Shown here one piece after another: positions 2 through 16,182 of a stretch of 26,006 bases of DNA. The translations under genes were made by a program, and so were the position numbers. The DNA comes from Leptolyngbyaceae cyanobacterium (GTDB lineage Bacteria; Cyanobacteriota; Cyanobacteriia; Phormidesmidales; Phormidesmidaceae). The stretch is from positions 1 through 26,006 of the forward strand of contig CBDHHL010000027.1 in assembly GCA_965263355.1 (NCBI GenBank), written 5' to 3'. Position 1 is the stretch's first letter, and every line of letters starts with the position of its first letter. A model generated the notes under the pieces. It saw only the letters and a list, made by a program, of their open reading frames with translations. It was not told the origin of the DNA and did no database searches.

Positions 2-775
2 ATCTACCAAGCCCAACTGGCCCACGCTTCTTATCTGCAAAACCCAGCTGGCTTTCTTGAGCACTATAAAAAAATAACGATAGAAAATAATGTCGCTTGG
101 TATCTCAAAAGCAAAGAAAAAACAACCATTATTTTCAGGGGCACCGATACCCTATGGTCTGACTGGAAACAATCTAATCTAATTTTTTGGCCCCATAAAG
201 AATGCAAAGATTTCAAGGCTCATGCTGGGTTCTATGATGGTGCTTTGAAGTTTATGCAGCATTGCCAGAAAGAACATTTATTAGATAGCCCGTTAGAACT
301 GATTGGCCATAGCCTTGGAGGCGCGATCGCTTTGATGTTCGGCATAATTGCCGCTGACAATGGTTTTCCTGTAGAAAGTATCAGCACCTTTGGAGCACCC
401 AGGGGCATGGATGAAGCCGGGGCCGATAAACACCGGGCATTAGGCCTAGAAAGTAAAACTTGGCAGGTCCGCAATGGGTCAGACCCTGTGTGTAGAATTA
501 TGCTGAGCTTCGATACAACCAAAAAAGTACTAGACCTAATCGGCTTAGATGTCAGAGTCGGTGCGTCTCATCCATGGTGCCATGAGATAATCACGAACCA
601 TCAGACGGGAAAAATCATAGAAAGCCCTGACGAATGGCAAAATGTCAGGGCCAAAGAGCCTGACACAGTAACCCGTATCGAAAAGTTTGCCTCAGCGATC
701 AAGGGGCTGACCGCTGAGGCTTTCATAGTTGATGACCATATGATTTGGAACTATATCAAAGGACTTGGAGGTTGA
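2..775 (+). CDS. Class 3 lipase / alpha-beta hydrolase, 5'-truncated by the window edge
   Basis: The frame stays open upstream of the listed 245 start back to base 2 (IYQAQLAHASY...IIFRGTDTLWSDW...HAGFY). Lipase_3 motifs occur in order: FRGT..DW, H.GF, GHSLGG nucleophile elbow, TFGAP, N.SDPV, DH. Confidence 0.88.
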   Translation: MYQAQLAHASYLQNPAGFLEHYKKITIENNVAWYLKSKEKTTIIFRGTDTLWSDWKQSNLIFWPHKECKDFKAHAGFYDGALKFMQHCQKEHLLDSPLELIGHSLGGAIALMFGIIAADNGFPVESISTFGAPRGMDEAGADKHRALGLESKTWQVRNGSDPVCRIMLSFDTTKKVLDLIGLDVRVGASHPWCHEIITNHQTGKIIESPDEWQNVRAKEPDTVTRIEKFASAIKGLTAEAFIVDDHMIWNYIKGLGG

Positions 776-1400: not shown

Positions 1401-2052
1401 GCTTAGTTCCTCTCAAGTATTGTTTAGCTTTATTGATTTCCCCGTTAAATAACAGGGCAAAAACATAGTCTTTCTGACTTTCCCTTAACACTTGATATTC
1501 CAAGATATCGGCATATTCCAAGCCAGCAAACGGGGAAACTTCGCGAATTGGGTCTTGTCTAAAAATTCTTGGTCTAGAATATATCTCTGTTTGAATTGTC
1601 CGTTGCCTATTGCTTTTGAACCATAGCTTTCTGACCAGCTCAGTCGCATGAAAATCATAACGGCCTGAGCCAGACTCTATTAACTTTAGCCTTATAAGTG
1701 CATCACGGACCCGCTGATTCATAGGAGTGTGCATAGTCAAGAAACTCTCGAATTCTCTAGCCTGAATATCAGTTAGTAACTCAAACGCTGTTTCGATTAA
1801 TTCAACCTCAGTAAATGGTTCAAGTTTTTTATACTTCATCCATATTTCACGGACTCCAGGGGCAAGCTCATTGTTTTCTATGAGCAATCCAGCCCGACGA
1901 AATGCGCTTAAAACGGCACCTGATCGAGACGGCGGCAGAACATGGCCCCCACCCTGGCAAATCATATTTAAGATCTTGGTTCTAATCTTTCTGGACTGTT
2001 CGTATTTTTCAACTTCGTTCTTAATTTGTTCTAATGTCCATTCAGCCATCAA
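1378..2052 (-). CDS. Hypothetical protein (224 aa)
   Basis: Long ORF coupled to the upstream methylase stop; no motif recognised. Confidence 0.7.
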   Translation of the reverse strand: MMAEWTLEQIKNEVEKYEQSRKIRTKILNMICQGGGHVLPPSRSGAVLSAFRRAGLLIENNELAPGVREIWMKYKKLEPFTEVELIETAFELLTDIQAREFESFLTMHTPMNQRVRDALIRLKLIESGSGRYDFHATELVRKLWFKSNRQRTIQTEIYSRPRIFRQDPIREVSPFAGLEYADILEYQVLRESQKDYVFALLFNGEINKAKQYLRGTKRELSRRN

Positions 2053-3083
2053 ACCGCCAGCTCCAATAAACTTTTTTGCTCATATTTGCCCAACGTAAAA
2101 TCACCCCCGAATTCCCAAAAACCCTCAACAAACTGATCGTCTCGACTATTGCCGTTAATCCCGTTGTTGCCCCCAGTCAAAACGCTAAGAGGTGTTAACC
2201 GCCAATCACGGCCAAATTTATTTATCCGTTCAATCGCCTCACACAATGGGTCTGAAATATAATTAGTCATCACAACCCGTTCAATTCGAGGGTTAGCCAA
2301 CAGCCTTTCTAGCGTGCTAACAATCAAATCAAACAACTCAATTCCCTGTGGGTCACCATGGCAAATGTAAGACGGTGTTAATGCCCCTGTCCCCCGTCGT
2401 CCCGGTCTAGACCCTTTCGGCACCCAATAAGGTGCATCATGCAAAGCGATCGTTTTGCCAGTAAAAGACAGTTCAAAACTATCAATGCAAGCATGAGCGT
2501 CATTAGAAAAGTGAAGCCTCCAATTAGGGCTAAACCAGGGCATCTTATAACCCCAGCCATCATTCAAGGACTCAAGTAACTCTGGCGATAATTGAGGTTC
2601 ATTTTTCACAAACCCAGACTTTTTTTTGAGGCTGGCTACCTTATCTCGACTCTCTTTTACGTTTAATCGCCCCTTAGTATTCGCCCTGAGGCAGCTCATA
2701 AACGTGAACTCGCGAATCAACAGAGATGCGGCAGCAAGTGTTACACAGTCGCTTGTATCCTTAGTATCAACAATAGCTTTAAGGTTGTCATAGACAACCT
2801 TTGGCCCCTTGGAGAGCACTTCTTTAGACCAATTATTAATAGTCTTCTCTACTTGCTGCCTTAGACTGTCATCTTGCCAGCATTTATAAATTACCTGAAC
2901 AACAGGATCTATATCAGCCAAGAAAGCCCGCTTAACAATTCCGTTGCCGAGCATCCAATGACTGAAGTGGCCAGCACAGGCAAAAGGCTCAATGCTGGCA
3001 TCATAAACATAACGCCTATCCCATACAGGATACTTAACGCGATCTTTTTTGCTGCCAGGGGTGGGGAATAAACCTGTTTTCAT
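2049..3083 (-). CDS. DNA adenine methyltransferase, Dam/D12-like, with variant motifs
   Basis: Motif order X-I-II...IV of alpha-class MTases: FPTPGSK, IEPFACAG, LADID, HDAPYW (normally DPPY), VVMTNY. Confidence 0.75.
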   Translation of the reverse strand: MKTGLFPTPGSKKDRVKYPVWDRRYVYDASIEPFACAGHFSHWMLGNGIVKRAFLADIDPVVQVIYKCWQDDSLRQQVEKTINNWSKEVLSKGPKVVYDNLKAIVDTKDTSDCVTLAAASLLIREFTFMSCLRANTKGRLNVKESRDKVASLKKKSGFVKNEPQLSPELLESLNDGWGYKMPWFSPNWRLHFSNDAHACIDSFELSFTGKTIALHDAPYWVPKGSRPGRRGTGALTPSYICHGDPQGIELFDLIVSTLERLLANPRIERVVMTNYISDPLCEAIERINKFGRDWRLTPLSVLTGGNNGINGNSRDDQFVEGFWEFGGDFTLGKYEQKSLLELAV

Positions 3084-3088: not shown

Positions 3089-3322
3089 TTAACTTTCAAG
3101 AAACCCCCGTACTTTCTGTTGTTCAGCCCAGAAATGAAGTACTTTTGTTGAATTTTTCAGCACTATGCCATCAATAGAAAAAATTGTCCCTTGCCCCAGG
3201 TAGTGCCAGGATTCATAAACAGGATTTTTATTCATATCGCACGCGTCATAGTGCAGTAACTGACCATCAATTAATGCAGTGCATACTTTCTTCTCTTCAT
3301 CACCTAGTTTTACTGTCATCAT
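3089..3322 (-). CDS. Hypothetical protein (77 aa)
   Basis: In operon, 5 bp from the methylase start. Confidence 0.55.
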   Translation of the reverse strand: MMTVKLGDEEKKVCTALIDGQLLHYDACDMNKNPVYESWHYLGQGTIFSIDGIVLKNSTKVLHFWAEQQKVRGFLES

Positions 3323-3387
3323 TTCTTTTCCTAGTATCGGCTAACATCAATGCAGAGGCCATGACGACCCCTGCATCAAACTAACTA

Positions 3388-4569
3388 TTAAATAGCGGCT
3401 GGCTGAGGAGCCTTAGAGTTCTCAGCAATACGAGCCTTGATGCCCGCAACAAAAGAACTTTGAGAAGATTCAGGCAAACGTAAACGACAAATAACTCGCT
3501 TGTTCTTGTTCTTCATCTCTTCAATCCTATCAATAGAAAGGATTGCAGGGGCATCAATGCTTAATTGAGTAGTAGAGCCCAAAAGCACCCGTTTAATATA
3601 AGTATTGCCATTGATCGTCTTCTCAGAGCCATCAACAATGGCATAAATTTCAACCCCATCACCAAACTTGCCCTGAGTCTTTTTGTAACCAACTATCTTA
3701 TATTCAACCTCAGGGCTAAGCTCGGAAAGCTTCATGTAATTGCCTCCCGTCAGCTCAAACTCATGCCCATTGACACTAAGTTTTTTGCCTTCCTTGGAAA
3801 CGGTTAGTTCTTCAGCGAACCAACCATTTTCATCAATAGAAAACTTTGCCCAATCTTCTTTATTGCCTGGTGCGTAAAAAAGCACTGGTTTTTCACCGAT
3901 AGCACCTAAGATAGATCCGTAAAATTCACCTTCTTTGTCTCTCTTGGGAACCCATTTAATATGGGCAAACTCAATATCTGAACCGTCTTCTACATCCCCC
4001 CACTTGATTCTTTCCTCACCTCGCAACAAAAACCCAGTAAGTTTTTCAGGCGTATTTGCCATAGATAAACGAGCACTAACGAGTTTTCGCCCATCTTCAG
4101 AGCGATGCTCATACTGTAAGCGAACAGGGCAAACCAACGCATATCCAGATGGATCTAAAATCAGCGTGTCATCGCCTAAATTAAGCGCGTACAAATCGCT
4201 AGGAAATACAGTTTCATTAGGGATGACAAATCGCTGCTGTCCCCATCTGACACAAATCCCGTCTTCATAAGCGTAAACAGCAGGTGTGGCTAAATAACCG
4301 CCATTATCATTGTTTACAAAAACGCAAGTACAGCCATCTGGATTGTACTCAGTAAAACCCAGCTTGCTGCAAAGCTGGTTAAACGCCTCACGAATATCTT
4401 CCGGCAAACTCTGATCTGGAATGTCAATTTTATCTTCGCTAATCCCAGCACTCAATAACTCTGTCTCAAGGTCCATTAACCTTTGAGTAAGATTGATGTT
4501 TGGTGCAATCGCAGTTGCAGTAGTTTCAACAGCTTGAGTGCTAGAGCCTTTCTTTTGAAATCGGGCCAT
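3388..4569 (-). CDS. Hypothetical beta-rich protein, possibly ssDNA-binding
   Basis: Long ORF (probable start MARFQKK) transcribed divergently from the primase. The C-terminal part (YKIVGYKKTQGKFGDGVEIYAIVDG) looks OB-fold-like; function is inference only. Confidence 0.7.
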   Translation of the reverse strand: MARFQKKGSSTQAVETTATAIAPNINLTQRLMDLETELLSAGISEDKIDIPDQSLPEDIREAFNQLCSKLGFTEYNPDGCTCVFVNNDNGGYLATPAVYAYEDGICVRWGQQRFVIPNETVFPSDLYALNLGDDTLILDPSGYALVCPVRLQYEHRSEDGRKLVSARLSMANTPEKLTGFLLRGEERIKWGDVEDGSDIEFAHIKWVPKRDKEGEFYGSILGAIGEKPVLFYAPGNKEDWAKFSIDENGWFAEELTVSKEGKKLSVNGHEFELTGGNYMKLSELSPEVEYKIVGYKKTQGKFGDGVEIYAIVDGSEKTINGNTYIKRVLLGSTTQLSIDAPAILSIDRIEEMKNKNKRVICRLRLPESSQSSFVAGIKARIAENSKAPQPAAI

Positions 4570-4644
4570 AATAATAAATTCCAATTTTTGAACATCGAGT
4601 TAGGGCAAACGTGGCATCGAACCGCCCTAAACCTTACAAGTACA

Positions 4645-4708
4645 ACACTAAAAAATACAATCAAGTTTGTCAAGGGGCTTGACAAAAAAGAAAAAATACA
4701 GCCATGCT
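4645..4708. promoter_or_regulatory. Back-to-back divergent sigma70-type promoters
   Basis: Perfect inverted repeat TTTGTCAAG-ggg-CTTGACAAA (4666-4686) gives TTGACA on both strands. Leftward -10 TAGTGT at 17 bp; rightward -10 CATGCT at 18 bp. Confidence 0.6.
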
Positions 4709-4771
4709 TGTAAAGCAATGCCATTATATAAAACGCAGCAAATATAATGGGCTTCCTGGAATTTAATAAAT

Positions 4772-7021
4772 ATGAGTGGATTAGGAGCTGATTTTGGATG
4801 GAAATCAATACGCAAGTTTATTCCCGAGCTGCCCGAGCAGCACTATCTAGAAGCCCATCACGTTAGTCATTTAGCAGAAAGCGGTATAAGTCCCAGTGCT
4901 GCCCTAGTAGCTGGCATATTTAGCGCTGATGCTGCCTTAGCTAGAACGCTCACAGGCCACGGTAGAGCCGGTCTGATATTCACTTATTTCACGATTGACG
5001 GCAAAGATGTATATCGATGGGGGGATGATAGCAGGCCATTTTTTAGACTCAGGCCAGACAACCCGCCAAGCCCAAAATGCACATATCTGTCCCCAAAAGG
5101 GGCGCCCCCACGGATTTATTTTCCGAGAGTGGCTAACAAAGTCGATTTTACTAAGCTTTCAGGCCTTAATCTAGCCTTAACAGAAGGCGAGAAAAAAAGC
5201 CTACTGGCAACACTCTGTAATATTCCATGCATAGGGATTGGAGGGGTTTACAGTTACAAGACTGGCGATAGAGACGAATGGGGCAACCGTGCTTTAGGAT
5301 GCCTGGTTGATGAGATTGATCTTAGATCCGCGCAAAACTTAACCATAGTTTTTGATAGCGACATCACCCACAAACATCAGGTTGCTAGGGCCATCAAAGC
5401 ATTGGCTGGAAATTTAATAGAGGCTTATCATCAGCTCGAAATAAATGAGACAGGCTCTAATGAGCGAGTGCCTGCCCGAACACTAGCATTAGCTAAAAAA
5501 ATAAAATATGCGCTGCTCCCAACACGGTTAAAGCTTAGCAATGAAAAAAAGACCAAAAAACTAGGCTTAGATGACGCAATTGTGCTATTAGGCGAGTCCC
5601 CAGTAAAGGAGTTGTTAGCCCACGCATTGCCATTAGTAAAATGCAAGTGGGAGGACAAATCATTAGATACTGAGTGCCTGTTTGCGTCTGAACCGCTGGG
5701 AGACGACGCCCACAAAGATACTCCTATTAATAAACAGCATCATGTTAGAGGGTTAATCAGTTGGCTATCCTTGCATGGGATTTATGCAAATATTCCTGAT
5801 TATTCAAAACGTCAATATTATCCAGAAGGCATCTGGAAAGACGTAGGCGAGGAAGCTTGGAAATTACTTTCCGAACAAATAGCTGACGCTCAATACTGGC
5901 TAAATAGGAAGCGTGCGATCGCGGCGCAAGAACTTAGATTTGTAGAGAACAAGACCCGATTAAGTAAAGACCAATTTGACCAACCGCATCTACTAGGATT
6001 TATTAATGGAGTGCTGGAGCTTAATAAAAAAGAGCTTATTCCACATTCTCCTCAAAATTATATTACTCAGACATTAGGATTTTCATATGACCCTGAAGCC
6101 CAATGTATCCAATGGCTAACCTGGCTAAATTGGATATTCGAAGATGATGAAAAGTGGCCAGAGATTATTCAAGCCCTTATTCGTTGGACGATCACGCCTA
6201 AAGAAAAAGGTCCCTATCCCATTCATATATGGCCTGTTCTAATTGGCCCAGCTGGCATCGGTAAAGGGACATTTTTAAGTGTGTTAACGCAGCTAGTAGG
6301 CGAAGGCAGTTATGCCGCCTGGAATTATCACAACGTGAATGACGCTCGCGGCATGAACAGTATGTCCGGCAAACGAGCTTGTTTTGCAATGGACCTTAAA
6401 GGCGAATTGGGCAGTCAGGCAGTTGGAAATATCAACTCAATCTGTGTCAACGAGCCTCTAGACGTAGAAGCTAAATATAAAGACAAACGAACCGAAGAGT
6501 TCAAAACTGTCTTATGGGCAGCCATGAACCAGCCGATCAAGTCCAGGGCAGCTGACCAAGAAGGACTTAGTAGGCGAGTACTATATATCCCATTTAGCCG
6601 CAAACCCGCCGAGATCGATACTGAGCTGGCCAACAAATTAAAAACTGAGCTACCAGGAATATTTAATTGGGCTTGGGCTATCTCCCTAGATGAAGCAGTG
6701 GAAACACTAAAAACCCACCTCAAGTCTGAGGAGAACATAGCATTACAGCAACGTCACTTGGCAGAGTCAAATACTGTCTACGAATGGATGGAACATCTAG
6801 AACTATCCGTTGCTCAAACTCAGATAATTAGTGTCTGGTACAATCGTTATAAAGAATGGGTACTTAACACAGGCTGCAAACCATTAAAAATGAGAAATTG
6901 GAAAAAATACATCCTTGCCGCCGGGGCCGAAACTCAGAGGAAGACAGGAGAAGGCATCCCGCTAACACTACCTCCCCTAAAAGACGTTGACATTAGAAAA
7001 ATGCTAGGACTATTCAACTGA
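4772..7021 (+). CDS. DUF3854 (TOPRIM-like) + D5_N + SF3 helicase primase-helicase, P4 alpha/D5 family
   Basis: YLSPKG..PRIYFP, LTEGEKKS, IGIGGV, IVFDSD, GLDD (TOPRIM); LGFINGVLEL..PHSPQNYIT (D5_N); Walker A GPAGIGKGT; VEAKYKD, AMNQP, LSRRVLYIPF, ELPGIFNWA; C-terminal winged-helix-like domain. Confidence 0.92.
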   Translation: MSGLGADFGWKSIRKFIPELPEQHYLEAHHVSHLAESGISPSAALVAGIFSADAALARTLTGHGRAGLIFTYFTIDGKDVYRWGDDSRPFFRLRPDNPPSPKCTYLSPKGAPPRIYFPRVANKVDFTKLSGLNLALTEGEKKSLLATLCNIPCIGIGGVYSYKTGDRDEWGNRALGCLVDEIDLRSAQNLTIVFDSDITHKHQVARAIKALAGNLIEAYHQLEINETGSNERVPARTLALAKKIKYALLPTRLKLSNEKKTKKLGLDDAIVLLGESPVKELLAHALPLVKCKWEDKSLDTECLFASEPLGDDAHKDTPINKQHHVRGLISWLSLHGIYANIPDYSKRQYYPEGIWKDVGEEAWKLLSEQIADAQYWLNRKRAIAAQELRFVENKTRLSKDQFDQPHLLGFINGVLELNKKELIPHSPQNYITQTLGFSYDPEAQCIQWLTWLNWIFEDDEKWPEIIQALIRWTITPKEKGPYPIHIWPVLIGPAGIGKGTFLSVLTQLVGEGSYAAWNYHNVNDARGMNSMSGKRACFAMDLKGELGSQAVGNINSICVNEPLDVEAKYKDKRTEEFKTVLWAAMNQPIKSRAADQEGLSRRVLYIPFSRKPAEIDTELANKLKTELPGIFNWAWAISLDEAVETLKTHLKSEENIALQQRHLAESNTVYEWMEHLELSVAQTQIISVWYNRYKEWVLNTGCKPLKMRNWKKYILAAGAETQRKTGEGIPLTLPPLKDVDIRKMLGLFN

Positions 7022-7051
7022 ACTACAAACATCGAAACAGACAACTACACG

Positions 7052-7084
7052 AGCGCTTCAGGCCACCAAACCTGAGGCGCTTTT
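7052..7084 (+). terminator. Intrinsic terminator after the primase-helicase
   Basis: AGCGCTTCAGG-ccaccaaa-CCTGAGGCGCT hairpin (one G-U pair) followed by a T run. Confidence 0.7.
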
Positions 7085-7850
7085 ACTTTGGCCAGTATCG
7101 ACCGCTACAACCAGTCCTAGAGCCAGCAAAACAAAACTGCCGCCGCTTCCCCCCTCACCCTTTCCTAGAACGAGGGGACCTAAGAAAAGCTTAGCGATGT
7201 ATCAAATGACACCAAGTAGGCTGTCTTCATAAAACTCTGGTTGAGTGTGCCAGTTGATAGTGATTTGTAGGATTAGTGGTAGTTAAGCCCAAAAAGTGAT
7301 CAGTTTTTTCACAAAAATCATTAGTAAATCCCTAGGAATTTCACTAAAACTTGAATTTTGAAATCCTTTTATATCAATGGTTTCAGCGATTTTTTTATCG
7401 AAATGGCCATTTTTTGGCTCAAACTTTCTGTTTTCTATGGGAGTGCTCCTTATCTATGCCCTATTAGCCTCTATCTATTTCTAAAACAGAAAGTTTGAAA
7501 TTGAAATATATAAAATATTAGAGTATAGAAAACGCTGCAATGTATATATAGCAAGGGATGCAGCCGACAAAAAGCACTTGAAATAACTATGAAATAACTA
7601 CTGAAAAGCAGTGAATTAGTAGGTGAAACCCAGTGATTTTTTGAATGCTTTTTTGCAGAATCCAGGGGGTTAACGTCTGTTAAATAGAATCTAAGTTTCA
7701 CCCAAAGATTATAGTACTGATGCACTAAAGCTAAAAAGCGCTGAAACCCGCATTCTGTCGTTAAATTTGCTTTTTAGTGTGCCAGTTGCTCTGATTTTTG
7801 CTTTTGAAGGACTCGCTTGCTGGCCTGTCAGTGGCGTTTATTTTTTGTCA
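7085..7850. other. Putative replication origin
   Basis: Longest non-coding stretch, directly after the primase, with an AT-rich core. Direct repeat AGTGTGCCAGTTG (7244-7256, 7776-7788). Inverted repeats 7419-7434/7483-7498 and 7379-7394/7733-7748. A/C-rich to G/T-rich switch across it. Confidence 0.6.
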
Positions 7851-7856
7851 AGTGTC

Positions 7857-7885
7857 TTTACAGGTATGGTTGTGGTTGCTACTAT
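7857..7885 (+). promoter_or_regulatory. Sigma70-type promoter of the helicase operon
   Basis: TTTACA-17 bp-TACTAT, preceded by TGTCAAG as in the 4666-4686 palindrome. Confidence 0.6.
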
Positions 7886-7905
7886 TGTGGTTGTAGAGAT
7901 TTTGG

Positions 7906-9633
7906 GTGATTTGTATGGTTGAGGCGATTCAGTCGTCATTATTGATGGCTACTGGCGATGACGAATCGCCAAAAATAACGTTGACAGGCCAGCAAGAGGT
8001 TCTTAAAGCTGAGGTACTGGAATGGCTAAGGCTTAAGCCTTCTAAGCTTGCTCGTGTGACTGGCTTTGCTGGGACGGGAAAGACCACCGTGATTAAATAT
8101 GTTGTGCAGGCTGCTATTGAAGAGGGGCTTATTAATGGTCCTGTCTGGGCTTGCGCTCCTACTCATCAAGCTAAAGGGGTGATTGAGAACTCGTTGAGGG
8201 GAAGTGCTGTCACTGAGGTGACCACCGCTCATTCATTGCTTGGTTTGCGGCCTAAGACAGTTGAGTTCAAACGAAAGGACCAAGATAAATTAGATGTCCT
8301 TTTAGGCATTAAAGAAGAGCTTAGAAGTACGGATGAATCGGCGTTAATTGATGCTTTGTTGATACGTCGCAACGCTTCAGACGCTGAAGTTCAATCGTTT
8401 GTGCCTAGCGGAAAGCTCAAGGAAGGAATAGAAAAAGTCAGGTTTTTGTTAGTTGATGAATGGTCAATGATCGACAAGCTTCTATATGGGCTTTTTTGCG
8501 AACTAGCGAATGACCCAGTGATGCACCCTGACTTTCAAATTATTTTCTTGGGGGATCCTGCTCAGCTGCCACCTATTGGCGAAACAATTAGCAAGGTTGA
8601 GTCTTTGCCGTCATTCCAAGAGTTAACAGAGGTTGTTCGCTATAAAGGCGCAATTCTTGAATACTGCAATAAGGTCCGTACTGAACGAGATTACAACTGG
8701 CTGCATCAGCGAGTGGAGGAAGATGACACTTTAATGGTTCTGCAAGAGTGGGAAGTCATGCCTCAACTTAAAGAACTGTACGCAGCTGGGGAATCTATCC
8801 GATTTGCTGCAGCGACTAACGCTAGGGTAATGGCCCTTAATTATCAGATTCGCGGCATTCTCAAAGATGGGGATTTGTCTGGACTATTTTACGATCCAGG
8901 GGATGTTGTGTTGACGTTGAATGCTGTTAGCCGTAGCAGTTCATATGCTTATGACGTTGCTTGCGGTGGGAAAAAATCGAAGCTGGAAGAGCACACCAGC
9001 ACACTTTTAGAACTTGGCGACCTATGCGGACCGGGTGCATATGTAAGTCTTGGCACTTCTGGAACAATTCTTACAGACCAGTCATTTGAGATGACATCAA
9101 AGCTTGGTACTAAATTTAGCCGGATGATTTTTCGGTATCGGCGTTATGAGTCAGGGCTACCGTTCTCGGAACGAAAAGCAATATGTTTGCTCAACCCAGC
9201 TCAGTACGACCAATGGCAGCTTGAATGTAAGCAGCTAGCTAGCCGAGCAAAAGTTACTCAGACCCGCAGTCGTAAATCTACAGGTATTAGAGGACAGGAA
9301 GGGGAGCAGGCTAAGGCTGTTTGGGAAGAGTTTGGTTTAAAAAATTGGTGGAAAAAGAAGAACGGCGAACCTTTACAGCAGTATGAATATCAAAAGCTTA
9401 AAACGGGATTGTGGATAGACTACTTTGACTTGGCCAACTTTGCTGATAAGGCCAGTTACAGCTATGTGAGCACTTGCCATCGGCTGCAAGGCGTAACAGT
9501 AGATATTGTCGTGCTTGACATGAAGACTCTTATGTCGAACGCACAAGCAAAATTTGACGAAACTTGGGATCCTCGAAAGCTGCTGTACACCGCAGCTACT
9601 AGGGCACGTAAACAGTTGATTTTTATGTGCTAA
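7906..9633 (+). CDS. SF1B helicase, Dda/RecD-like
   Basis: GFAGTGKTT, ACAPTHQAK, TAHSLL, VDEWSM, GDPAQLPPI, LTEVVRY, TCHRLQGVT, LLYTAATRAR. Confidence 0.92.
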   Translation: MICMVEAIQSSLLMATGDDESPKITLTGQQEVLKAEVLEWLRLKPSKLARVTGFAGTGKTTVIKYVVQAAIEEGLINGPVWACAPTHQAKGVIENSLRGSAVTEVTTAHSLLGLRPKTVEFKRKDQDKLDVLLGIKEELRSTDESALIDALLIRRNASDAEVQSFVPSGKLKEGIEKVRFLLVDEWSMIDKLLYGLFCELANDPVMHPDFQIIFLGDPAQLPPIGETISKVESLPSFQELTEVVRYKGAILEYCNKVRTERDYNWLHQRVEEDDTLMVLQEWEVMPQLKELYAAGESIRFAAATNARVMALNYQIRGILKDGDLSGLFYDPGDVVLTLNAVSRSSSYAYDVACGGKKSKLEEHTSTLLELGDLCGPGAYVSLGTSGTILTDQSFEMTSKLGTKFSRMIFRYRRYESGLPFSERKAICLLNPAQYDQWQLECKQLASRAKVTQTRSRKSTGIRGQEGEQAKAVWEEFGLKNWWKKKNGEPLQQYEYQKLKTGLWIDYFDLANFADKASYSYVSTCHRLQGVTVDIVVLDMKTLMSNAQAKFDETWDPRKLLYTAATRARKQLIFMC

Positions 9634-9704
9634 CTAGTCAAGTTCGTCAATTCACGGTGCATCAATTCAAGTAATTCAAATCAAACAAGAAAAGGCTAAA
9701 AACT

Positions 9705-10544
9705 ATGACCATAAACACTTCCAACGACAATAACGATTCCAATATCGTTCGCAGCTTTAATCAAGTTGATATCTGGCAAAAGCGAGAAGATGGCTATATC
9801 AATCTCAATCAGATGGCTAATGCTACCGGCAAGCGAATTGATCATTGGCTAAAAACCGAGCCCACGAAAGAATTGTTTGATGAGTTTTTAAGACATCAAA
9901 AGTGTCCGTACTTATCTACCCCCTCAGAGGGGGAGTTTTCAGAAAATGCTAGTGATAGCAAGGATATTGAGCCACCTATTAGAACCATCCAAGGCCGTAA
10001 TGGTGGGACATGGGCACACCCTGATATTGCTATTCAATTTGCAATGTGGTGCAGCCCAGCATTTGCCCTGCAAGTTAGCAAATGGGTTCGTACTTATATG
10101 ACTGAAGGCCGATTGGAGGCTGAAGAGTCAATCCCAGCTCATGAACTTAAGTTCATTAAGATGGTTGAGCAAATCGAAGATGTGTTTCCAAAGGACTGCG
10201 CCCAATCCCGAGACCTTAAGCACCGAGCTGCACTAATTTGTTATCCAGAGTATGCATGCGCTCAATTGATTGCAGAAGATAATCGTAAAAAGTACCTTAT
10301 CAAACGAAAGCGTGAATTACAGGCGCGCAGTGTTGAGAACTGGTTGGCTAGCTTAGCTTTGATTAGAAACCAACAAAAACCAATTTCTAAATGGTATCAA
10401 AGCTATAAAGAATGGTGCTTGCAAGAATTCGACATGGTTCCATTGGCCATGTACAAGTGGAAAGCTTATTTGATTGATAATGAATTCGCTCAAGTCCTGA
10501 AAAAAACAGGTGCAGGTATCCCACTAGAAATCTTTCCTGTATAA
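9705..10544 (+). CDS. KilA-N domain protein fused to a primase-type C-terminal winged-helix domain
   Basis: EDGYINLNQMANATGKRIDHWL...GGTWAHPDIAIQFAMWCSPAFALQVSKWV is KilA-N. The last ~70 aa align with the C-terminus of 4772..7021. Confidence 0.9.
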   Translation: MTINTSNDNNDSNIVRSFNQVDIWQKREDGYINLNQMANATGKRIDHWLKTEPTKELFDEFLRHQKCPYLSTPSEGEFSENASDSKDIEPPIRTIQGRNGGTWAHPDIAIQFAMWCSPAFALQVSKWVRTYMTEGRLEAEESIPAHELKFIKMVEQIEDVFPKDCAQSRDLKHRAALICYPEYACAQLIAEDNRKKYLIKRKRELQARSVENWLASLALIRNQQKPISKWYQSYKEWCLQEFDMVPLAMYKWKAYLIDNEFAQVLKKTGAGIPLEIFPV

Positions 10545-10546
10545 CC

Positions 10547-10906
10547 ATGCCTCACCAATTAGAACTACCCTTAACCCGTCGTTCTAAAACCAAATGCACT
10601 GCTTCGCCAAATGCCATCATCCCAGGCTTAGACGCTAGCTTATGCCGCTGTGATTATTGTCTAACTCGTTCTGATGGCATTTGGTGGGTAGATGTTGACC
10701 AACGGCTTGACTGCCTCAATAAGAAAAAGCATAAAATCCCTTACTTAATTGAGGTATACCGTCGCCAAGCTGTTGGTGTGGCCCACGACGACGATACAAA
10801 AGAAACAGAAGCTCAAAATGCGAAACGTAAGCACGCACAATGGGCCGGTCAAAAGTTCAAACAAACTAATAAATCATGTCAGCAACAACAATTACTAGAC
10901 CAGTAA
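10547..10906 (+). CDS. Hypothetical Cys-containing protein (119 aa)
   Basis: Tightly packed in the operon; C..CRCDYC may bind metal. Confidence 0.6.
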   Translation: MPHQLELPLTRRSKTKCTASPNAIIPGLDASLCRCDYCLTRSDGIWWVDVDQRLDCLNKKKHKIPYLIEVYRRQAVGVAHDDDTKETEAQNAKRKHAQWAGQKFKQTNKSCQQQQLLDQ

Positions 10907-12414
10907 CAGAACCAAAGTTCAGCTCTTATCCTTATCCTAAGGAGGGGGCCACAGGTGCCGAGTGGCGAGCTTGGCTAGAAGGAATGGTTGGGGATCTTTG
11001 GCATGACATCGCAGTTGAATTAACCCCCCTATTAAATAATGTGCAAGTTGAGCGATTCCCAGTTGAATTTATCCCAACATTTGCCGAGGTGGGCGGCAGT
11101 GGTTGGGCTCGTCTTGATGAGGGCAGCTGGCAATGCATTTCCCCTGATGACCTGCCTGCAACCATGGTTCTCGATGTTGAATCCATTGAATTGCAAGCAT
11201 TCACGGCAAACGCTGATATAGACGCATGGTTGCCTTGCCTATGCATTTGCTATGGGGCCGATGGTTACTGGTATGCATGGCAAGAGCAAAATCCAATGTA
11301 TCGCTGGACGGAAACTAAGCGGCGTACTATTCCGTTCCCAACTGGTTGCATCATAATCACTCAGAACGGCGCTGCCCATGATTCGCAATTTCTTAGTAGT
11401 TCTTATGCAGAGTATGGACCAGAGCGTTGTCTATTTATAGATGTGATGGCCCTGGCAATGCTTGTCAGAGGCGTGCATAAAGAACAGCGATCGCAGTATG
11501 AGAAGTACAAGGTTGCGATCGCTAATGGTAAGCCTGCTCCCGATTGGGTAACTCAGGCATCCGACATGGATCTGGCCAGCTTAGCTAGTGACGTACTGGG
11601 AATTGAGATTCTGAAAACAGTTGGAGGGGAAGGGCCACAGACGCTGTTTGAATATTGTGCTCAAGATGTCTGGATAACCCTTCGATTGTTTCAAGAACTA
11701 TGGCCACTGGTTGCGAATATCTATTGCCCCAGTCCAGTAATTTTGTATGGCATGGCGGCAACGACTGGGCTTAGATATCCGGTTGGTGATTGGCAAGAAC
11801 TTGTTTCGTATATAGAAACTGAATACGAAAAAGCCAAAAAAATTAAGCCTAGCAAACGAGATTCTAATGATATTGCTCTAGTCAATTGGGGCAAATCACA
11901 TTTGCGTACATTTCGCGATGGATACAGCGTTAACGGCATGACCAATATGGGCTTTAACCCTGCTCACGATGTATCAGGGATGCCCAAAAGCACCATCTGG
12001 AGTCATCACTGGATGATTCGGCAATTTTTAATTACTGGAGTTAGTGATCAGCCGACCACTAGTTACATGCTGTTTGAAGCTAGGGTTCCGATGCCGATTA
12101 TCCCAGGGAATGCATTAGCTAAGACATTAGCCAGCCAGCCGAACATTAAAACGCATTTTGCTAAGCCCCCTGAGCCAGTGAAAGCCAACAAAAAAGCTAA
12201 GGCTGATTGGCTGCAATTAAGACCATTAACCGATGCTATGCATGTCATGATCTGCCTGATTGACTGTTTTTGTGAAGAGTACGAAATTGACGGGTTTCTT
12301 GCAATCCCAGGGCTAGAAACATTGTGGTACGCCGTCGACTCTGCTCAGGAAAAAGAATTTCAAGAATGCATCGCTAAAGCTCAAAGTTTAGTTTACAAAT
12401 TGATGGCTGATTGA
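10876..12414 (+). CDS. DNA polymerase gamma-like protein: intact 3'-5' exonuclease, degenerate polymerase domain
   Basis: GWARL, MVLDVE (ExoI), WYAW, QNGAAHD (ExoII), FIDVMALAMLVRG, YCAQDVW (ExoIII) and CPSPVILYGM follow the POLG/Mip1 order (GWTRY, LVFDVE, WYSW, GHNVSFD, FLDTMSMHMAISG, YCAQDVW, CPHPVTLAGM; recalled from memory). Confidence 0.85.
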   Translation: MSATTITRPVTEPKFSSYPYPKEGATGAEWRAWLEGMVGDLWHDIAVELTPLLNNVQVERFPVEFIPTFAEVGGSGWARLDEGSWQCISPDDLPATMVLDVESIELQAFTANADIDAWLPCLCICYGADGYWYAWQEQNPMYRWTETKRRTIPFPTGCIIITQNGAAHDSQFLSSSYAEYGPERCLFIDVMALAMLVRGVHKEQRSQYEKYKVAIANGKPAPDWVTQASDMDLASLASDVLGIEILKTVGGEGPQTLFEYCAQDVWITLRLFQELWPLVANIYCPSPVILYGMAATTGLRYPVGDWQELVSYIETEYEKAKKIKPSKRDSNDIALVNWGKSHLRTFRDGYSVNGMTNMGFNPAHDVSGMPKSTIWSHHWMIRQFLITGVSDQPTTSYMLFEARVPMPIIPGNALAKTLASQPNIKTHFAKPPEPVKANKKAKADWLQLRPLTDAMHVMICLIDCFCEEYEIDGFLAIPGLETLWYAVDSAQEKEFQECIAKAQSLVYKLMAD

Positions 12415-12490
12415 GCGAAAAATCTAAATAACCCTTTCACAGCATGGGTTTGACAGATCTTGGGAAAAAATTTGATGTTTATATTTTTGT

Positions 12491-13345
12491 GTGATAGTGA
12501 ACAACCTAATTATTGTTGATACGTCTGTGATCGCCTTCCAAATGTCGGCCCAGATTGACAAGGCAGGCCTAACCGAAACTAATGCTAAAGTTTACGCCTA
12601 CATGGCGGCAGAATGGGTTAATTCACTAGGCTGGATTCCCGCGTTGCAATCAACTGGTAAATGCGTTTGGGCAATTGACTCTAAGCCCTACTGGCGTAAT
12701 CAGCTATTCCCCGATTACAAAGCAGGCCGCAAACCTAAACCCGCATCATTCCATACTGCGATGGAGGGCATATTAAGCAGCAGTGCTTCTTTGATTGATA
12801 TAAAATCACAAGAAGCCGACGACGTAGCCGCTGCTATTGTTCGGCTATGGCTAGATAGCAGCTCAGGATTGATCGATCAAATCTATTTGGCTACCGTTGA
12901 TAGTGACTGGCATGGGTTAGTCCAAAACCCTGATATTTTTTGGTTAAATACTCGCAACCACCCTCCACGCGTTCGAAGTCGAGAAGAGATATTTAATTGG
13001 CTTTGCAGCAAATGGAACCAGCAATCTAAGAAACGTCAGAAATGGTGGGCATTGCCTAGCTATCAATCATTTAGATGTGATGACGTTTGGCGATGGAAGA
13101 TAGCAGTCGGCGATAAAGCCGATAACTTAAGCGATGGTTCAGCAAAATACTTAATTGATTTACTGCGACCTCCCAAACAATTTGATATCCTAGAATCAAA
13201 GGAATCTGTAAATACTATTTACAGAGGAGTAAATTTAGCAAGCAAGCCTGATTTGAGCCTTGCTCATGAATGTAAGCAGGGCATGCTGTCACTAGGGGCA
13301 CTTCCCCCCATCGAAATGATTAGCCTGAAAGTTTTAGTTTCATAG
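12491..13345 (+). CDS. 5'-3' exonuclease / flap endonuclease (T5 D15, T4 RNase H, Pol I N-terminal-like)
   Basis: LIIVD, AIDSKPYWRNQLFPDYKAGRK, EADD, TVDSDW, GDKADNL. Confidence 0.9.
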   Translation: MIVNNLIIVDTSVIAFQMSAQIDKAGLTETNAKVYAYMAAEWVNSLGWIPALQSTGKCVWAIDSKPYWRNQLFPDYKAGRKPKPASFHTAMEGILSSSASLIDIKSQEADDVAAAIVRLWLDSSSGLIDQIYLATVDSDWHGLVQNPDIFWLNTRNHPPRVRSREEIFNWLCSKWNQQSKKRQKWWALPSYQSFRCDDVWRWKIAVGDKADNLSDGSAKYLIDLLRPPKQFDILESKESVNTIYRGVNLASKPDLSLAHECKQGMLSLGALPPIEMISLKVLVS

Positions 13346-13355
13346 TTTAACGGCC

Positions 13356-13709
13356 ATGAGAGCATCAACGCAATATAAACAAAGATTATCAGAGCTGCTA
13401 TCGAAAAAGATACTTAAAGCAGCTGGAATTGATGCAACGGTTCGAGACCTAAGCGATCGCTGCGATGGACTAGCAAGTCATCAAACAATTGCGGCTTGGC
13501 GTTCTGGCAATTATGTTAAGCAACTAGACGACTTTTCTTTTCAGGCATTAGAAAAGATTTTGGCCCATAGAGGGCTAAAGGCTCATGAAATTAGCTACTA
13601 TCTTGAGCATGGTGTTTGGCTAGAGAAAAAACAGTCCAAAAGGCTAGGCAGCCTTTGGCAGAAGCGAGAGCAGATTAATCAATCAATTCAACAGTTTGCG
13701 GCAATTTAG
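13356..13709 (+). CDS. Putative XRE-like HTH regulator
   Basis: TVRDLSDRCDGLASHQTIAAWRSG has HTH spacing. Confidence 0.55.
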   Translation: MRASTQYKQRLSELLSKKILKAAGIDATVRDLSDRCDGLASHQTIAAWRSGNYVKQLDDFSFQALEKILAHRGLKAHEISYYLEHGVWLEKKQSKRLGSLWQKREQINQSIQQFAAI

Positions 13710-13711
13710 TA

Positions 13712-13740
13712 TTGACAGATTTGGAAATAACATCCATAAT
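13712..13740 (+). promoter_or_regulatory. Strong sigma70-type promoter
   Basis: TTGACA-17 bp-CATAAT. Confidence 0.75.
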
Positions 13741-13769
13741 TGGAATTGAACACTTTCCAAAAATGGAAA

Positions 13770-13892
13770 ATGACTTTCACTAAGATAGGCATCGACTCCT
13801 GGTCTATTTATCTGCCAGGTGAAGTTTACCAGGGCTGCATAGAACTTAACTGGACCGTTACTAAAAACCTAGACAAATCCGTACAGATGTAG
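13770..13892 (+). pseudogene. Small ORF (40 aa), probably interrupted near 13855 by an IscB-type element
   Basis: MTFTKIGIDSWSIYLPGEVYQGCIELNW resembles the N-terminus of 14165..14506. The similarity ends where the omega-RNA locus begins. Confidence 0.4.
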
Positions 13893-14150
13893 TCAAACCT
13901 GCTTAGCAGGGAAGTAACGTGCAGAATCTTCAGAAATGACTGAAGTTGCGAAAGCAAGGGTTTAAGTATCCACGTTGAGAAAGTGACGCTTTAATGCGAC
14001 TCACCTGCGAATGACCGCCAGTTTGTAGCTCTGAGGACTTGAGATTAAACAGTATAGACGAACGGTTTATAAGCCTGTGTCTCTTGTCTATCAACCTTTC
14101 CCAACAGTTTCGAGGCAAACTTTACAGCAATGCTTGGGAGAAGATCCCAC
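13892..14150 (+). ncRNA. IscB-type omega-RNA (HEARO-like) scaffold, orphan
   Basis: Ordered hallmarks CACGTT, CACCTGCGAATG..GCCAGTTTGTAGCTCTG, TTAAACAG, AACA.TTTCGAGGCAAACTTTAC. Long-range stem GTTGAGAAAG (13974-83)/CTTTCCCAAC (14096-105). Stem CTGCGAA/TTTGTAG. The 5' boundary is uncertain (13855-13892). Confidence 0.75.
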
Positions 14151-14164
14151 AATTATTTAGCCTT

Positions 14165-14506
14165 ATGACCACCATAACATTTCGCCAAACTCACAGCACT
14201 CAATGGATTGTCCTGAACGAGGCAGAGAAACTGGGCCACATCGGATTCAATCTCACAGCTATGCGCTGGGAGTATTCGCCATATGGCCAGCCAGTTGCAG
14301 CAACAGGCTCCCTGGAGGATTGCAAAGCTGCAGCCATTGCCGAGAATAAACAGCATCCAAACTATCCGCTAAGACCTATTAACGGTTATCAGTCTGGGGA
14401 TATCGCTGAAGTCTTTATCGAGCCGTCAAAGCGTCGAAAACACAGCGGTTTATATGTTGGGAAACTCTCTGTTACTTGCCTAAAAACGGAAAATGAGCGT
14501 ACATGA
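14165..14506 (+). CDS. Chimeric ORF: small phage-like N-terminal domain plus IscB C-terminal fragment
   Basis: ATG sits where iscB would start. The C-terminal NGYQSGDIAEVFIEPSKRRKHSGLYVGKLSV matches the IscB GFQTGD...GTYVGRV segment. No PLMP, RuvC or HNH motifs. Confidence 0.6.
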   Translation: MTTITFRQTHSTQWIVLNEAEKLGHIGFNLTAMRWEYSPYGQPVAATGSLEDCKAAAIAENKQHPNYPLRPINGYQSGDIAEVFIEPSKRRKHSGLYVGKLSVTCLKTENERT

Positions 14507-14766: not shown

Positions 14767-15000
14767 TTAGCACGAAAAGAAAGACATTCAATGACCCCCA
14801 CCTTAAAGAGGATGGGGGAGTGCCAGGAGTAAGACTGGCGTAACTGCGAATAGGCCATTGAGCAAGATTGCGGTTAACACTTCCAAAGGCTTCTCTACTT
14901 TGGACTCCTGTAAGCCTTTTTACTGAGGCGTAGCTAACGGCTAGACATCTGCAATCTTGTGGCTTAAGAGACCTGTAGTAACTGAGATTATCTCTCAACC
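14767..15000 (+). ncRNA. IsrB omega-RNA with 5' flank-derived guide
   Basis: Structured leader between the left end and isrB (ACTTCCAAAGGCTTCTCTACTTTGGA hairpin; CAAGATTGC/GCAATCTTG long-range stem). The guide is expected from ~14767-14786. Confidence 0.75.
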
Positions 15001-16182
15001 AACTATGTTCAGAATTCCAACACTCAACCCAGACGGTTCACCAGCAATGCCCACTAAGCTCGCCAGAGCTAAAAAGTGGGTAGAGCAAGGTAAAGCAGTT
15101 TGGGTTAAGACCGACCTTCGGATCAAAGCTGTCAGGCTAGTATCCGAACCATCAGGTAGAGCTACCCAGCCAATAGCGGTCGGTATCGATCCGGGAAAAT
15201 TATTCTCCGGCGTAGCCTGTCAGTCTGCTAAAGCAACATTGTTCACAGCTCATCTACTCTTACCCTTCAAGCGGGCAAAAGATCGGATGGAGTCACGGGC
15301 AATGATGCGACGTGGCAGGCGTGGTAGGCGCATTAACCGTAGTTTGCCTTTTGAATTGCGGGCACATCGTCAAAAGCGGTTTGACAACCGTAAGCAAACA
15401 AAAGTGCCTCCCAGTATTCGGGCTAATCGCCAACTTGAACTTAGGGTAGTAACTGAGCTTTGCAAGCTATTCCCTGTTTCAAGAATCGTCTTTGAATACG
15501 TTAAAGCTCGAACTAAGAAAGGTTGCTCGTTCAGCCCGGTACAGGTTGGGCAAAAATGGGCCATCGCTCAATTGGAAAAGCTTGCACCTGTCCGCACTCT
15601 TTACGGGTGGCAGACTGCCACCATGAGAGATCATTTGGGCTTAGAAAAGTCTAAGAACAAAGCGGAGCAATCCCCCCAATCTCATGCCGTTGACGGCATA
15701 GCTTTAGCAGCCAGTGAGTTTGTGGAATATCGCAAATATCACAGCAATGACTCAAGAGGTGCTGACTGGTTTGGCTCGGTCAATATCACGTCAGCTCACT
15801 TTGTAGTCGTTCATCGGCCACCCGTAAGCCGTCGTCAACTCCATTTAATGGTGCCCGCTAAGGGTGGATTAAGGCGGAAGTATGGGGGCACTGTGACTCG
15901 TCACGGGTTTAGAAAAGGCGATTTGGTTATTGCTGAAAAGAAAGGCATCCAATCAATCGGTTGGGTGTCTGGGGATACAAAAAATAAGGTGTCGGTGTCT
16001 GATTTCAACTGGAAGCGAATCGCCCAATTTACCGCGTCTAAAGTCCAGCTTCTCTATCGTTCTACGGGGTTGCTGGTTAATTGCCCACAGAGATTGTCAG
16101 TCAGCAACGCATCGAGCGTAGCAGCCTGACTCTCCTTTCCTCCCCCACTTGAACGAAGATGGGGGTTTCACGGAGTTTTGTG
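14787..16182 (+). mobile_element. Non-autonomous IS200/IS605-superfamily element carrying isrB and omega-RNA
   Basis: Similar subterminal hairpins at both ends: CCCCCACCTTAAAGAGGATGGGGG (~14795) and CCCCCACTTGAACGAAGATGGGGG (16142). No tnpA. ATGA immediately 3' of the right end. Confidence 0.85.
15005..16129 (+). CDS. isrB: IsrB RNA-guided nickase (RRXRR/PLMP, split RuvC, no HNH)
   Basis: PDGSPAMPT (PLMP), VGIDPG (RuvC-I), RAMMRRGRRGRR bridge helix, IVFEYV (RuvC-II), SHAVDG (RuvC-III), GFRKGD. No HNH between RuvC-II and III; 374 aa. Confidence 0.9.
   Translation: MFRIPTLNPDGSPAMPTKLARAKKWVEQGKAVWVKTDLRIKAVRLVSEPSGRATQPIAVGIDPGKLFSGVACQSAKATLFTAHLLLPFKRAKDRMESRAMMRRGRRGRRINRSLPFELRAHRQKRFDNRKQTKVPPSIRANRQLELRVVTELCKLFPVSRIVFEYVKARTKKGCSFSPVQVGQKWAIAQLEKLAPVRTLYGWQTATMRDHLGLEKSKNKAEQSPQSHAVDGIALAASEFVEYRKYHSNDSRGADWFGSVNITSAHFVVVHRPPVSRRQLHLMVPAKGGLRRKYGGTVTRHGFRKGDLVIAEKKGIQSIGWVSGDTKNKVSVSDFNWKRIAQFTASKVQLLYRSTGLLVNCPQRLSVSNASSVAA

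Follow-up and report, generated by a model that had tools for sequence, protein, structure and literature searches.

The stretch of DNA analysed here, 26,006 nt of the forward strand of contig CBDHHL010000027.1 (assembly GCA_965263355.1, Leptolyngbyaceae cyanobacterium; hereafter the window), encodes a 512-amino acid (aa) protein, P0001, that derives from DNA polymerase gamma (Pol gamma) and appears to be fingerless and polymerase-dead. The gene lies at 10876–12414 (+), and its frame is open from the ATG to the stop codon over 512 residues, as the first-pass annotation of this DNA had claimed. On sequence grounds, P0001 and its relatives of similar length (the short family) have a distinctive build: P0001 keeps the Pol gamma exonuclease domain with its DEDDy catalytic residues, while the spacer, the motif B-bearing fingers, and the catalytic carboxylates of both motif A and motif C have disappeared. 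We infer that it is probably a polymerase-dead derivative of a cyanophage-type Pol gamma and that it would act as a DNA-bound, stand-alone 3′–5′ exonuclease. No family in NCBIfam or PADLOC describes P0001.

The 3′–5′ exonuclease domain occupies residues 75–300 (11098–11775, +) and is of the Pol gamma type. The Pfam model for the mitochondrial polymerase exonuclease (PF18136, DNApol_Exo) matched P0001 at 40.2 bits against a curated cut-off of 26.7 (E = 2.8e-10), and phmmer aligned the domain to POLG at 1.9e-09. When all PDB sequences were compared with P0001 by phmmer, Pol gamma was the sole family with E < 0.01; the human and mouse enzymes scored approximately 2e-09 and yeast Mip1 1.2e-03, and the strongest stretch against POLG was residues 252–329, around Exo III. 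The DEDDy pattern (Exo I D-x-E, Exo II N-x(3,4)-D, Exo III Y-x(3)-D) is complete. In Exo I (D100-V-E102, 11173–11181, +), D100 is present in 13 of 13 family rows and position 102 is acidic in 12 (E in 11, D in one, with S in the remaining row). In Exo II (N164...H168-D169, 11365–11382, +), N164 and D169 are found in all 13 rows and H168 in 12, and in Exo III (Y260-C-A-Q-D264, 11653–11667, +), Q263 and D264 are found in all 13 and Y260 in 11. These catalytic positions are the best conserved of the whole protein (11–13 of 13 rows), and the exonuclease region has the highest mean pairwise identity of any region (0.39; 12 rows, P0029 omitted). The first-pass annotation had proposed a Pol gamma exonuclease with its acidic residues kept, placing DVE at 11173 and YCAQDVW at 11653 and naming an N...HD motif; both positions are correct, the N...HD motif is N164...H168-D169, and D100, E102, D169, and D264 are all present. 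Another segment that it had singled out, CPSPVILYGM, corresponds to residues 284–293. Ten short or fragment forms were scanned with PF18136, and seven exceeded the cut-off; P0012 (21.4 bits) and P0014 (25.8 bits) fell under it.

The polymerase half was compared with a reference alignment of 14 full-length prokaryotic relatives, the nearest of which to P0001 is P0015 (867 aa). Invariant in the 14 full-length forms are D608 and E613 of motif A, R660, K664, F668, Y672, and G675 of motif B, and H792 and D793 of motif C. BLASTP pairs P0001 with P0015 in two blocks, residues 12–327 with 3–306 (3e-39) and, without gaps, residues 441–503 with 753–815 (8e-10). Between the two blocks lie approximately 113 residues in P0001 versus approximately 450 in the full-length forms. 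In comparison with full-length Pol gamma, P0001 is without approximately 450 residues, namely the spacer, most of the thumb, the motif A region, and the fingers with motif B. Profile and BLASTP comparisons delimit the reduced stretch that replaces them (residues 351–438, 11926–12189, +), which contains the invariant G388 and a strand at 397–403. In the second block, I-H-D-S of P0015 stands opposite G-L-E-T of P0001, which puts L480-E481-T482 (12313–12321, +) at the place of the motif C H-D-(E/S) and bears out the earlier claim that HDE has become LET.

A polymerase-domain profile built from the 14 full-length forms (292 positions) matched P0001 solely at profile positions 226–282 (hmmsearch, 3.7e-10). 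When the same 14 proteins were searched against the window with tblastn, 13 found the exonuclease block (all except P0074), six found the motif C block (E = 1.2e-07 to 6.1e-04), and no further match appeared at E < 0.27. These searches, together with the model confidence given below, define a palm remnant at residues 439–512 (12190–12411, +), within which the segment DAMHVM...LWYAV spans residues 453–487. The first-pass annotation had traced this region to the Pol gamma palm through a POLG string. The string proved to be the one that HMMER aligns (POLG 1027–1074 opposite P0001 440–487), and this stretch, taken by itself, is significant against the full-length prokaryotic relatives but not against POLG (i-Evalue 2.3e+02).

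The absence of motif B and the fingers, also claimed earlier, was borne out by BLASTP, hhalign, and profile searches, none of which saw either in P0001, and Pfam gave no match to PF00476. The suggestion that motif A has been replaced by LFEARVP (residues 398–404) is one of two candidate placements: the model has a strand at 397–403, which corresponds to LFEARVP, and hhalign instead puts the glycine of the full-length "GAD" at G388. The choice is immaterial to the verdict, since a conserved carboxylate is missing from both places: D occurs at column 390 in just one of 13 rows, and none is conserved in the strand at 397–403. Across residues 319–452, no column has D or E in more than 8 of the 13 rows. 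At the position of the motif C Asp, the 13 rows carry E, E, E, R, E, D, Y, R, A, G, V, F, and K, of which five are acidic, and no pair of catalytic carboxylates is conserved in the palm. The short family does not conserve the motif A and motif C catalytic residues that are invariant in the 14 full-length forms. P0001 has none of the three motifs (A, B, and C) by which a functional family A polymerase is recognized, and since all three of these defining features fail, a polymerase annotation would be inappropriate. Because the fingers, motif B, and conserved carboxylates are all missing, it is very unlikely to have polymerase activity. Near-invariant residues in the C-terminal half are R328, W338-G339, P362, W375, G388, W445, and D453. 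A basic residue (K/R/H) occupies position 442 in 12 of 13 rows; its counterpart in P0015 is R754, an Arg that contacts DNA in family A enzymes. As a separate observation, P0008 (500 aa, on a 93,872-bp contig) is the sole short-family member with Asp at both columns 390 and 481; this may be chance or may mark a less degraded member, and the use of column 390 presupposes the hhalign placement of motif A.

An AlphaFold2 (AF2) model of P0001 was built on an alignment of 13 family members and gave a pLDDT of 89.7 and a pTM of 0.90, with values below 50 only for residues 1–10 and of 91–97 for the blocks covering residues 401–510. When the model was compared with the PDB using Foldseek, ranks 1–34 were all Pol gamma (human, mouse, and yeast; E from 2.2e-17), and the remaining family A polymerases ranked after them at approximately 1e-06. 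Over the exonuclease and palm, the predicted fold therefore resembles Pol gamma more closely than it does any other family A enzyme, in line with the descent first proposed for it. Beyond the exonuclease, the model has helices at 306–321 and 330–347, short strands including 397–403, a helix at 439–468, a hairpin at 473–477/482–488, and a last helix at 489–510. We read these elements as the thumb base, reduced palm, pre-motif C helix, motif C hairpin, and C-terminal helix, respectively, with a provisional residue mapping. The putative thumb base (residues 301–350, 11776–11925, +) is recognized from secondary structure and conservation, and its label follows from the order of the elements; R328 and W338-G339-K340 are almost invariant in the short family, and in the hhalign alignment W338 falls on the "LDW" of the full-length proteins. 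In the model, the thumb base and cut-down palm retain a POLG-like mutual arrangement. The N-terminal region (residues 1–74, 10876–11097, +) is modelled with a long helix at 27–54 and carries a YPYP motif at 18–21; it aligns with the N termini of full-length relatives by BLASTP and hhalign, and its mean pairwise identity within the short family is 0.23. No look-alike of comparable size was found in BFVD, where the best matches were proteins of 959 and 608 aa.

A word-indexed search returned one near-copy (98% identity, on a contig of 99 kb) and relatives of equal length with identities of 51, 49, and 42%. It found no longer relatives (897–2560 aa); full-length ones came to light later, when 1.84 billion representatives were searched exhaustively without a profile, which yielded 71 proteins at E <= 1e-3. 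The long relatives (approximately 750–1330 aa) have both PF18136 and PF00476. Sorted by length and coverage of the polymerase profile, 75 proteins comprised 44 full-length forms, 15 short forms of 469–550 aa (P0001 and its near-copy included), 7 intermediate forms, and 9 fragments of less than 400 aa. Against the 292-position profile, 12 of the 15 short forms matched from position 179 or later only and three had no match. Every relative that aligns end to end is 469–550 aa long and is without the motif A/B region. The short forms fall into 14 clusters at 50% identity or less (cluster sizes 1–16), which have a common build down to approximately 23–30% identity, with open frames on contigs of up to 124,835 bp. 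The close relatives of P0001 are not full length, and the short build, common to 14 clusters, is not that of a one-off decaying copy.

In an unrooted exonuclease-domain tree (63 rows, 331 columns, quick IQ-TREE run), all 14 short rows lay on one side of a branch with an SH-aLRT of 90, and a core of 11 was grouped at 95. Rows not entered in the tree were P0002 (the 98% identical near-copy), P0065 (no local match), P0074 (whose exonuclease match spans fewer than 150 residues), and the nine fragments. Because it is unrooted, a single origin of the short forms is compatible with the tree, not proven by it. Constraint was assessed between the window gene and its orthologue on C1, a 121,982-bp contig of a cyanobacterial metagenome-assembled genome (MAG; G001). 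The dN was 0.355 in the exonuclease and 0.519 in residues 326–512, and dS was saturated over the whole gene (NG86 undefined); in the two sub-regions where NG86 dS could be computed, it was 1.57 and 2.96, with omega values of 0.31 and 0.18. With dN far below saturated dS and omega below 1, the remnant is under purifying selection, weaker than that on the exonuclease. The question raised by the first-pass annotation, whether the loss of the motifs is itself conserved under purifying selection, can be answered in the affirmative: 14 clusters lie on one side of a branch, their frames are open, and dN is 0.36–0.52 against a saturated dS. A stripped-down form conserved across a family in this way looks repurposed rather than broken.

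The short family is small, deeply diverged, and rare, and is known from metagenomes only. Its members are nameless or "hypothetical protein" in their source annotations, and a sample of 400 other genomes belonging to the same phylum as the MAG contained none. A tblastn search of P0001 against 50,697 phage records gave no match at E 1e-3, and scans of IMG/VR with A3, P0012, and P0005 as queries returned no relative. The sole match in a metagenome scan (L002) was weak, covering 76 residues of a 259-aa open reading frame (ORF) on a high-GC contig. A search of sequencing runs gave three positive runs from a single study, and no RNA run was among them. The full-length P0015 has its best phage matches in the Mic1 "DNA polymerase gamma", S-CBWM1, S-TIM5, and the A-HIS2 polg. 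Scanning IMG/VR with four full-length forms gave five loci (L015–L019), which are uninformative on synteny because, of nine window module proteins, only the flap endonuclease matched there (in two of the five).

A second group of Pol gamma-like proteins, 726–769 aa long (P0006, P0024, P0033, P0036, and P0093; three of the five from cyanobacterial MAGs), keeps the exonuclease and a longer thumb/spacer and is likewise without motif B and without conserved motif A/C residues. Four of these are in the tree (two of them from cyanobacterial MAGs) and form their own clade (SH-aLRT 100) adjoining the short family. In the best tree, the short and intermediate forms stand together on one side of a branch, with a support of just 62.9. 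The other three intermediate rows are placed among full-length proteins and seem to be truncated gene calls. An AF2 model of the 726–769-aa forms from five sequences reached a pLDDT of 51.8, too poor for a structure search.

The P0001 gene sits in a replication module that is conserved on C1, and the comparison of genomic context rests on these two loci. At the left edge of the module are two divergent conserved genes for proteins of 77 and 398 aa (3089–4584, −; C1 orthologues at 40% and 37%). The 398-aa protein, P0078, matched only phrog_25892 (function unknown). It was considered as a possible cryptic polymerase, but neither search was informative: the Atlas scored unnamed viral clusters at 0.83 at best, and phmmer against the PDB gave an E of approximately 1. 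They are followed by a 749-aa primase-helicase of the P4 family (P4/D5-type, with DUF3854/Toprim-like, D5_N, and DUF5906 domains; 4772–7021, +; C1 orthologue 48%) and a 575-aa SF1B Dda/RecD-like helicase (7906–9633, +; C1 orthologue 60%), both assigned by Pfam, PHROG, and NCBIfam. A 279-aa KilA-N domain protein (9705–10544, +; Pfam) lies between the helicase and the next module gene; C1 has three unrelated small ORFs in this slot, which marks it as a variable spot within an otherwise conserved module. The next gene encodes a 119-aa Cys-rich protein, P0076 (10547–10906, +), and its end overlaps the start of the P0001 gene by 31 nt; it has an orthologue at the same place on C1 (55%) and no Pfam, PHROG, PADLOC, or NCBIfam match. 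A complex prediction for P0001 with P0076, run without controls, scored 0.00, which speaks neither for nor against an interaction. Immediately downstream of P0001 is a 284-aa flap endonuclease/5′–3′ exonuclease (FEN; 12491–13345, +; PF02739 at 6.5e-13, phrog_26716, and phrog_107), whose C1 orthologue (54%) is also adjacent. The last conserved module gene encodes the 117-aa P0077 (13356–13709, +; C1 orthologue 37%, same place), for which Pfam, PHROG, PADLOC, and NCBIfam gave no family match. C1 carries the module in the window order (77 aa, 398 aa, primase-helicase, Dda helicase, 119 aa, P0001 orthologue, FEN, 117 aa) at 37–60% identity; outside it, apart from two weak matches, the two sequences have only a class 3 lipase in common. 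PADLOC had no match for P0001, P0076, P0077, P0078, or the FEN, and only the SF1 helicase matched helicase-type models.

C1 includes host chromosome genes (GGDEF/EAL, spermidine synthase, ABC transporters, and glutaminase) and a prophage of approximately 95 kb. The prophage runs from a serine integrase at approximately 18.9 kb through DNA methylases and the replication module to tape-measure, large terminase, portal, major head protein, and lysozyme genes, ending at approximately 113 kb. The first-pass annotation had called for a search for a full-length polymerase elsewhere in the replicon, and neither the window nor the complete C1 prophage yielded one. In the window, which covers 26 kb of phage, there was no polymerase among 18 ORFs searched against Pfam or 34 searched against PHROGs; on C1, there was none among 89 ORFs in Pfam (1e-5) or 25 large ORFs in PHROGs. 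The incomplete MAG that includes C1 had no PolA, PolB, DnaE, Prim-Pol, or protein-primed PolB (PF00476, PF00136, PF07733, PF09250, and PF03175). Searches of the window and C1 by tblastn with the 14 full-length forms gave no second Pol gamma piece. A polymerase split by an intron or intein, as in Mic1, was considered separately and rejected because both enzyme ends lie in one frame and no middle piece lies nearby.

Several features of the two phages were recorded alongside the module. Between the primase-helicase and the Dda-like helicase is a gene-free, AT-rich gap of approximately 880 nt (7021–7906; GC 0.395 for 7001–8000), which contains a strong terminator-like hairpin (7051–7082), a perfect 16-nt inverted repeat (7419–7434/7483–7498), a tandem 11-mer (7579–7600), and several direct repeats. 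C1 has a gap of approximately 790 nt at the corresponding place (27920–28710), and the window gap is a candidate origin of replication. A promoter and terminator scan of 4400–14200 gave no more sites than shuffled sequences, and Rfam (at gathering thresholds) and ARAGORN found nothing in the window. To the right of the module, 14957–16129 (+) encodes a 390-aa RRXRR/HNH protein (PF14239, 3.7e-41; phrog_32617, 1.3e-150) that scored under the cut-off of the NCBIfam model for IscB, an RNA-guided endonuclease (86.4 versus 175 bits). Rfam at gathering thresholds gave no RNA family next to this gene, and since the gene has no C1 counterpart, it may be a mobile insertion. DNA methyltransferase genes lie to the left of the module in both phages (window 2049–3083, −; C1 20893–22484); the 344-aa window protein matched only the PADLOC type II MTase model (7.4e-06), and C1 has N6_N4_Mtase and MT-A70 genes. 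The class 3 lipase (PF01764) common to both phages (window 2–775, +; C1 112918–113718; 32% mutual identity) stands on C1 directly after lysozyme and peptidase M15 genes and may be a lysis accessory against the cyanobacterial envelope. The C1 prophage also encodes, at 50447–50806 (L006:10447–10806), a 120-aa protein with an Acb2/Tad1 hairpin domain (PF24729; 1.5e-06, 28.7 bits versus a cut-off of 27), a candidate sponge for defence signalling nucleotides.

In the mechanism that we propose for P0001, the palm and thumb remnant would still sit on duplex or primer-template DNA and would feed the 3′ end into the exonuclease site. The protein would be a stand-alone, structure-guided 3′–5′ exonuclease of the phage replication module, beside the FEN, that trims or proofreads 3′ ends while a host polymerase synthesizes the DNA. 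On the simplest history, the slot was occupied in an ancestral phage by a complete Pol gamma, whose polymerase half was then pared down in the present lineage. Several points weigh against the proposed mechanism. An intact set of catalytic residues is no proof of activity, so that the exonuclease function is a prediction, and DNA binding by the remnant is expected from homology. Residues 326–512 are less conserved than the exonuclease core (mean pairwise identity 0.25 versus 0.39; 12 rows). P0012 is altered at three exonuclease positions (E102S, H168S, and Y260D) and its frame is still open; selection there may therefore target something besides exonuclease catalysis. With respect to the host polymerase, the window is 26 kb of phage and a phage polymerase could lie beyond it; the negative result from C1 represents one relative in an incomplete MAG, obtained with family models that are blind to novel polymerases, and many C1 proteins are without any family.

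A doubtful alternative is that P0001 is an active 3′–5′ exonuclease that works outside replication and proofreading, in recombination end processing with the SF1B helicase and FEN, in host DNA breakdown, or in the removal of defence-related nucleic acid. The Dda/RecD-like helicase and FEN could equally serve recombination-dependent replication or repair, and phage DEDD exonucleases with recombination- or degradation-type roles do exist, for example, T4 DexA. However, PADLOC recognized neither P0001 nor its small neighbours, and a temperate phage, as indicated by the serine integrase on C1, is not expected to degrade host DNA wholesale. P0001 also descends from a replicative polymerase and occupies a slot that is filled in named cyanophages by Pol gamma beside FEN, helicase, and primase (PMC7156551).

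It is also rather unlikely that P0001 is a pseudo-enzyme scaffold kept for its surfaces, which would hold the ancestral polymerase's place in the replisome, bind the primase-helicase and/or the 119-aa protein, and recruit a host polymerase or clamp, with exonuclease activity secondary or absent. Such a role would account for the retention of a catalytically useless palm remnant that is confidently modelled (pLDDT 91–97 over 401–510) and has omega well below 1, and for P0012, which is intact despite three lost exonuclease-site residues. The 726–769-aa group, also without conserved motif A/B/C residues, indicates that dead forms have been kept repeatedly or for long, and structural inactivated polymerase modules are known elsewhere (Pol epsilon, PMC2669801; iPolY, PMC12926913). 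However, conservation in the protein peaks at the five catalytic positions of the exonuclease (11–13 of 13 rows), which would be unexpected if catalysis were irrelevant, and no partner was identified.

That P0001 is still a DNA polymerase, either with an unconventional active site or with the fingers and motifs A and B supplied in trans, is very improbable. P0008 does have Asp at columns 390 and 481, and divided enzymes are known, both as split family A polymerases in T7-like phages (PMC10201439) and in Mic1, whose Pol gamma gene is in two ORFs (PMC7156551). Nevertheless, the catalytic columns are unconserved (481 acidic in 5 of 13 rows, 390 D in one of 13), nothing like motif B or the fingers was seen in P0001 by BLASTP, hhalign, or profile search, and tblastn with the 14 full-length forms found no piece that could act in trans in the window or on C1. 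Finally, a decaying one-off polymerase remnant in a dying prophage, its frame open by chance, might be suspected from the rarity of the family (0 of 400 other genomes of the phylum; cluster sizes 1–16) but is hardly credible and already refuted by the 14 same-length clusters that share a build to approximately 23–30% identity with open frames on contigs of up to 124,835 bp, by their position together on one side of a branch, by a dN far below saturated dS, and by an AF2 model from 13 sequences that is confident throughout.

A more elaborate scenario can be imagined, which we regard as improbable: a temperate cyanophage lineage would have rebuilt its replisome around a pseudo-polymerase, a fingerless remnant that retains its ancestral ability to dock on the phage primase-helicase and the primer-template and that proofreads in trans for a hijacked host polymerase. 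If true, the pseudo-polymerase would be a natural "exonuclease plus DNA clamp" module carved from the enzyme family that replicates mitochondrial DNA. More generally, P0001 indicates which part of the Pol gamma fold suffices to be kept for its own sake and, at 512 aa versus approximately 1200 aa for POLG, offers a small natural construct for the engagement of DNA by the Pol gamma exonuclease without a polymerase site. It also raises the question of who copies the DNA of a phage that has a primase-helicase, helicase, FEN, and proofreader but no polymerase. The practical weight of the finding is modest, given a rare family known from metagenomes only and a computational basis.

Among known systems, P0001 has the same exonuclease family (PF18136) and the same DEDDy motifs as Pol gamma itself, both the mitochondrial enzymes (POLG/Mip1) and those of cyanophages A-HIS1/A-HIS2, S-TIM5, S-CBWM1, and Mic1. 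Pol gamma, FEN, helicase, and primase are reported to be common to A-HIS1/2, S-CBWM1, and Mic1 (PMC7156551), and the window module similarly pairs a Pol gamma-type gene with FEN, helicase, and primase. A description of a fingerless Pol gamma derivative was not found in the searched literature, a search that excluded most subscription papers and all supplements. The 2023 reclassification of family A describes strict conservation of the catalytic residues across all 19 subfamilies and takes this to imply that each of them is a functional polymerase (PMC10201439).

Polymerase folds that outlive their catalysis have been described in other families. Pol epsilon has a C-terminal inactivated exonuclease-polymerase module (PMC2669801), bacterial PolX can combine a dead polymerase site with a conserved PHP 3′–5′ exonuclease, and iPolY proteins are inactivated Y-family polymerases (PMC12926913). 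All three resemble P0001 in retaining a polymerase fold after catalysis was lost, and PolX is also similar in that its exonuclease is under stronger constraint than its polymerase. They differ from P0001 in belonging to families B, X, and Y, in being inactivated by point changes rather than stripped of their fingers, and in lying outside phage replication modules. DEDD-type 3′–5′ exonucleases encoded apart from the polymerase, as P0001 is, are found among stand-alone DnaQ-type proofreaders (Pol III epsilon) and in the split PolA of T7-like phages (PMC10201439, PMC12926913); those, however, are bare exonuclease domains that work with a cognate polymerase subunit. P0001, in contrast, has its own palm and thumb remnant and a DEDDy site of PolA type, and the searches of the window and C1 gave no cognate phage polymerase for it. 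Like P0001, divPolA1 and divPolA2 derive from family A in phages, have subdomains that are lost or truncated, and were recognized by structure prediction. They keep the palm catalytic residues, and their 3′–5′ exonuclease is inactivated or absent (PMC11348598). P0001 is their mirror image, with the exonuclease kept and the polymerase gone, and thus the reverse of the known odd forms of phage family A, which lost the exonuclease rather than the polymerase.

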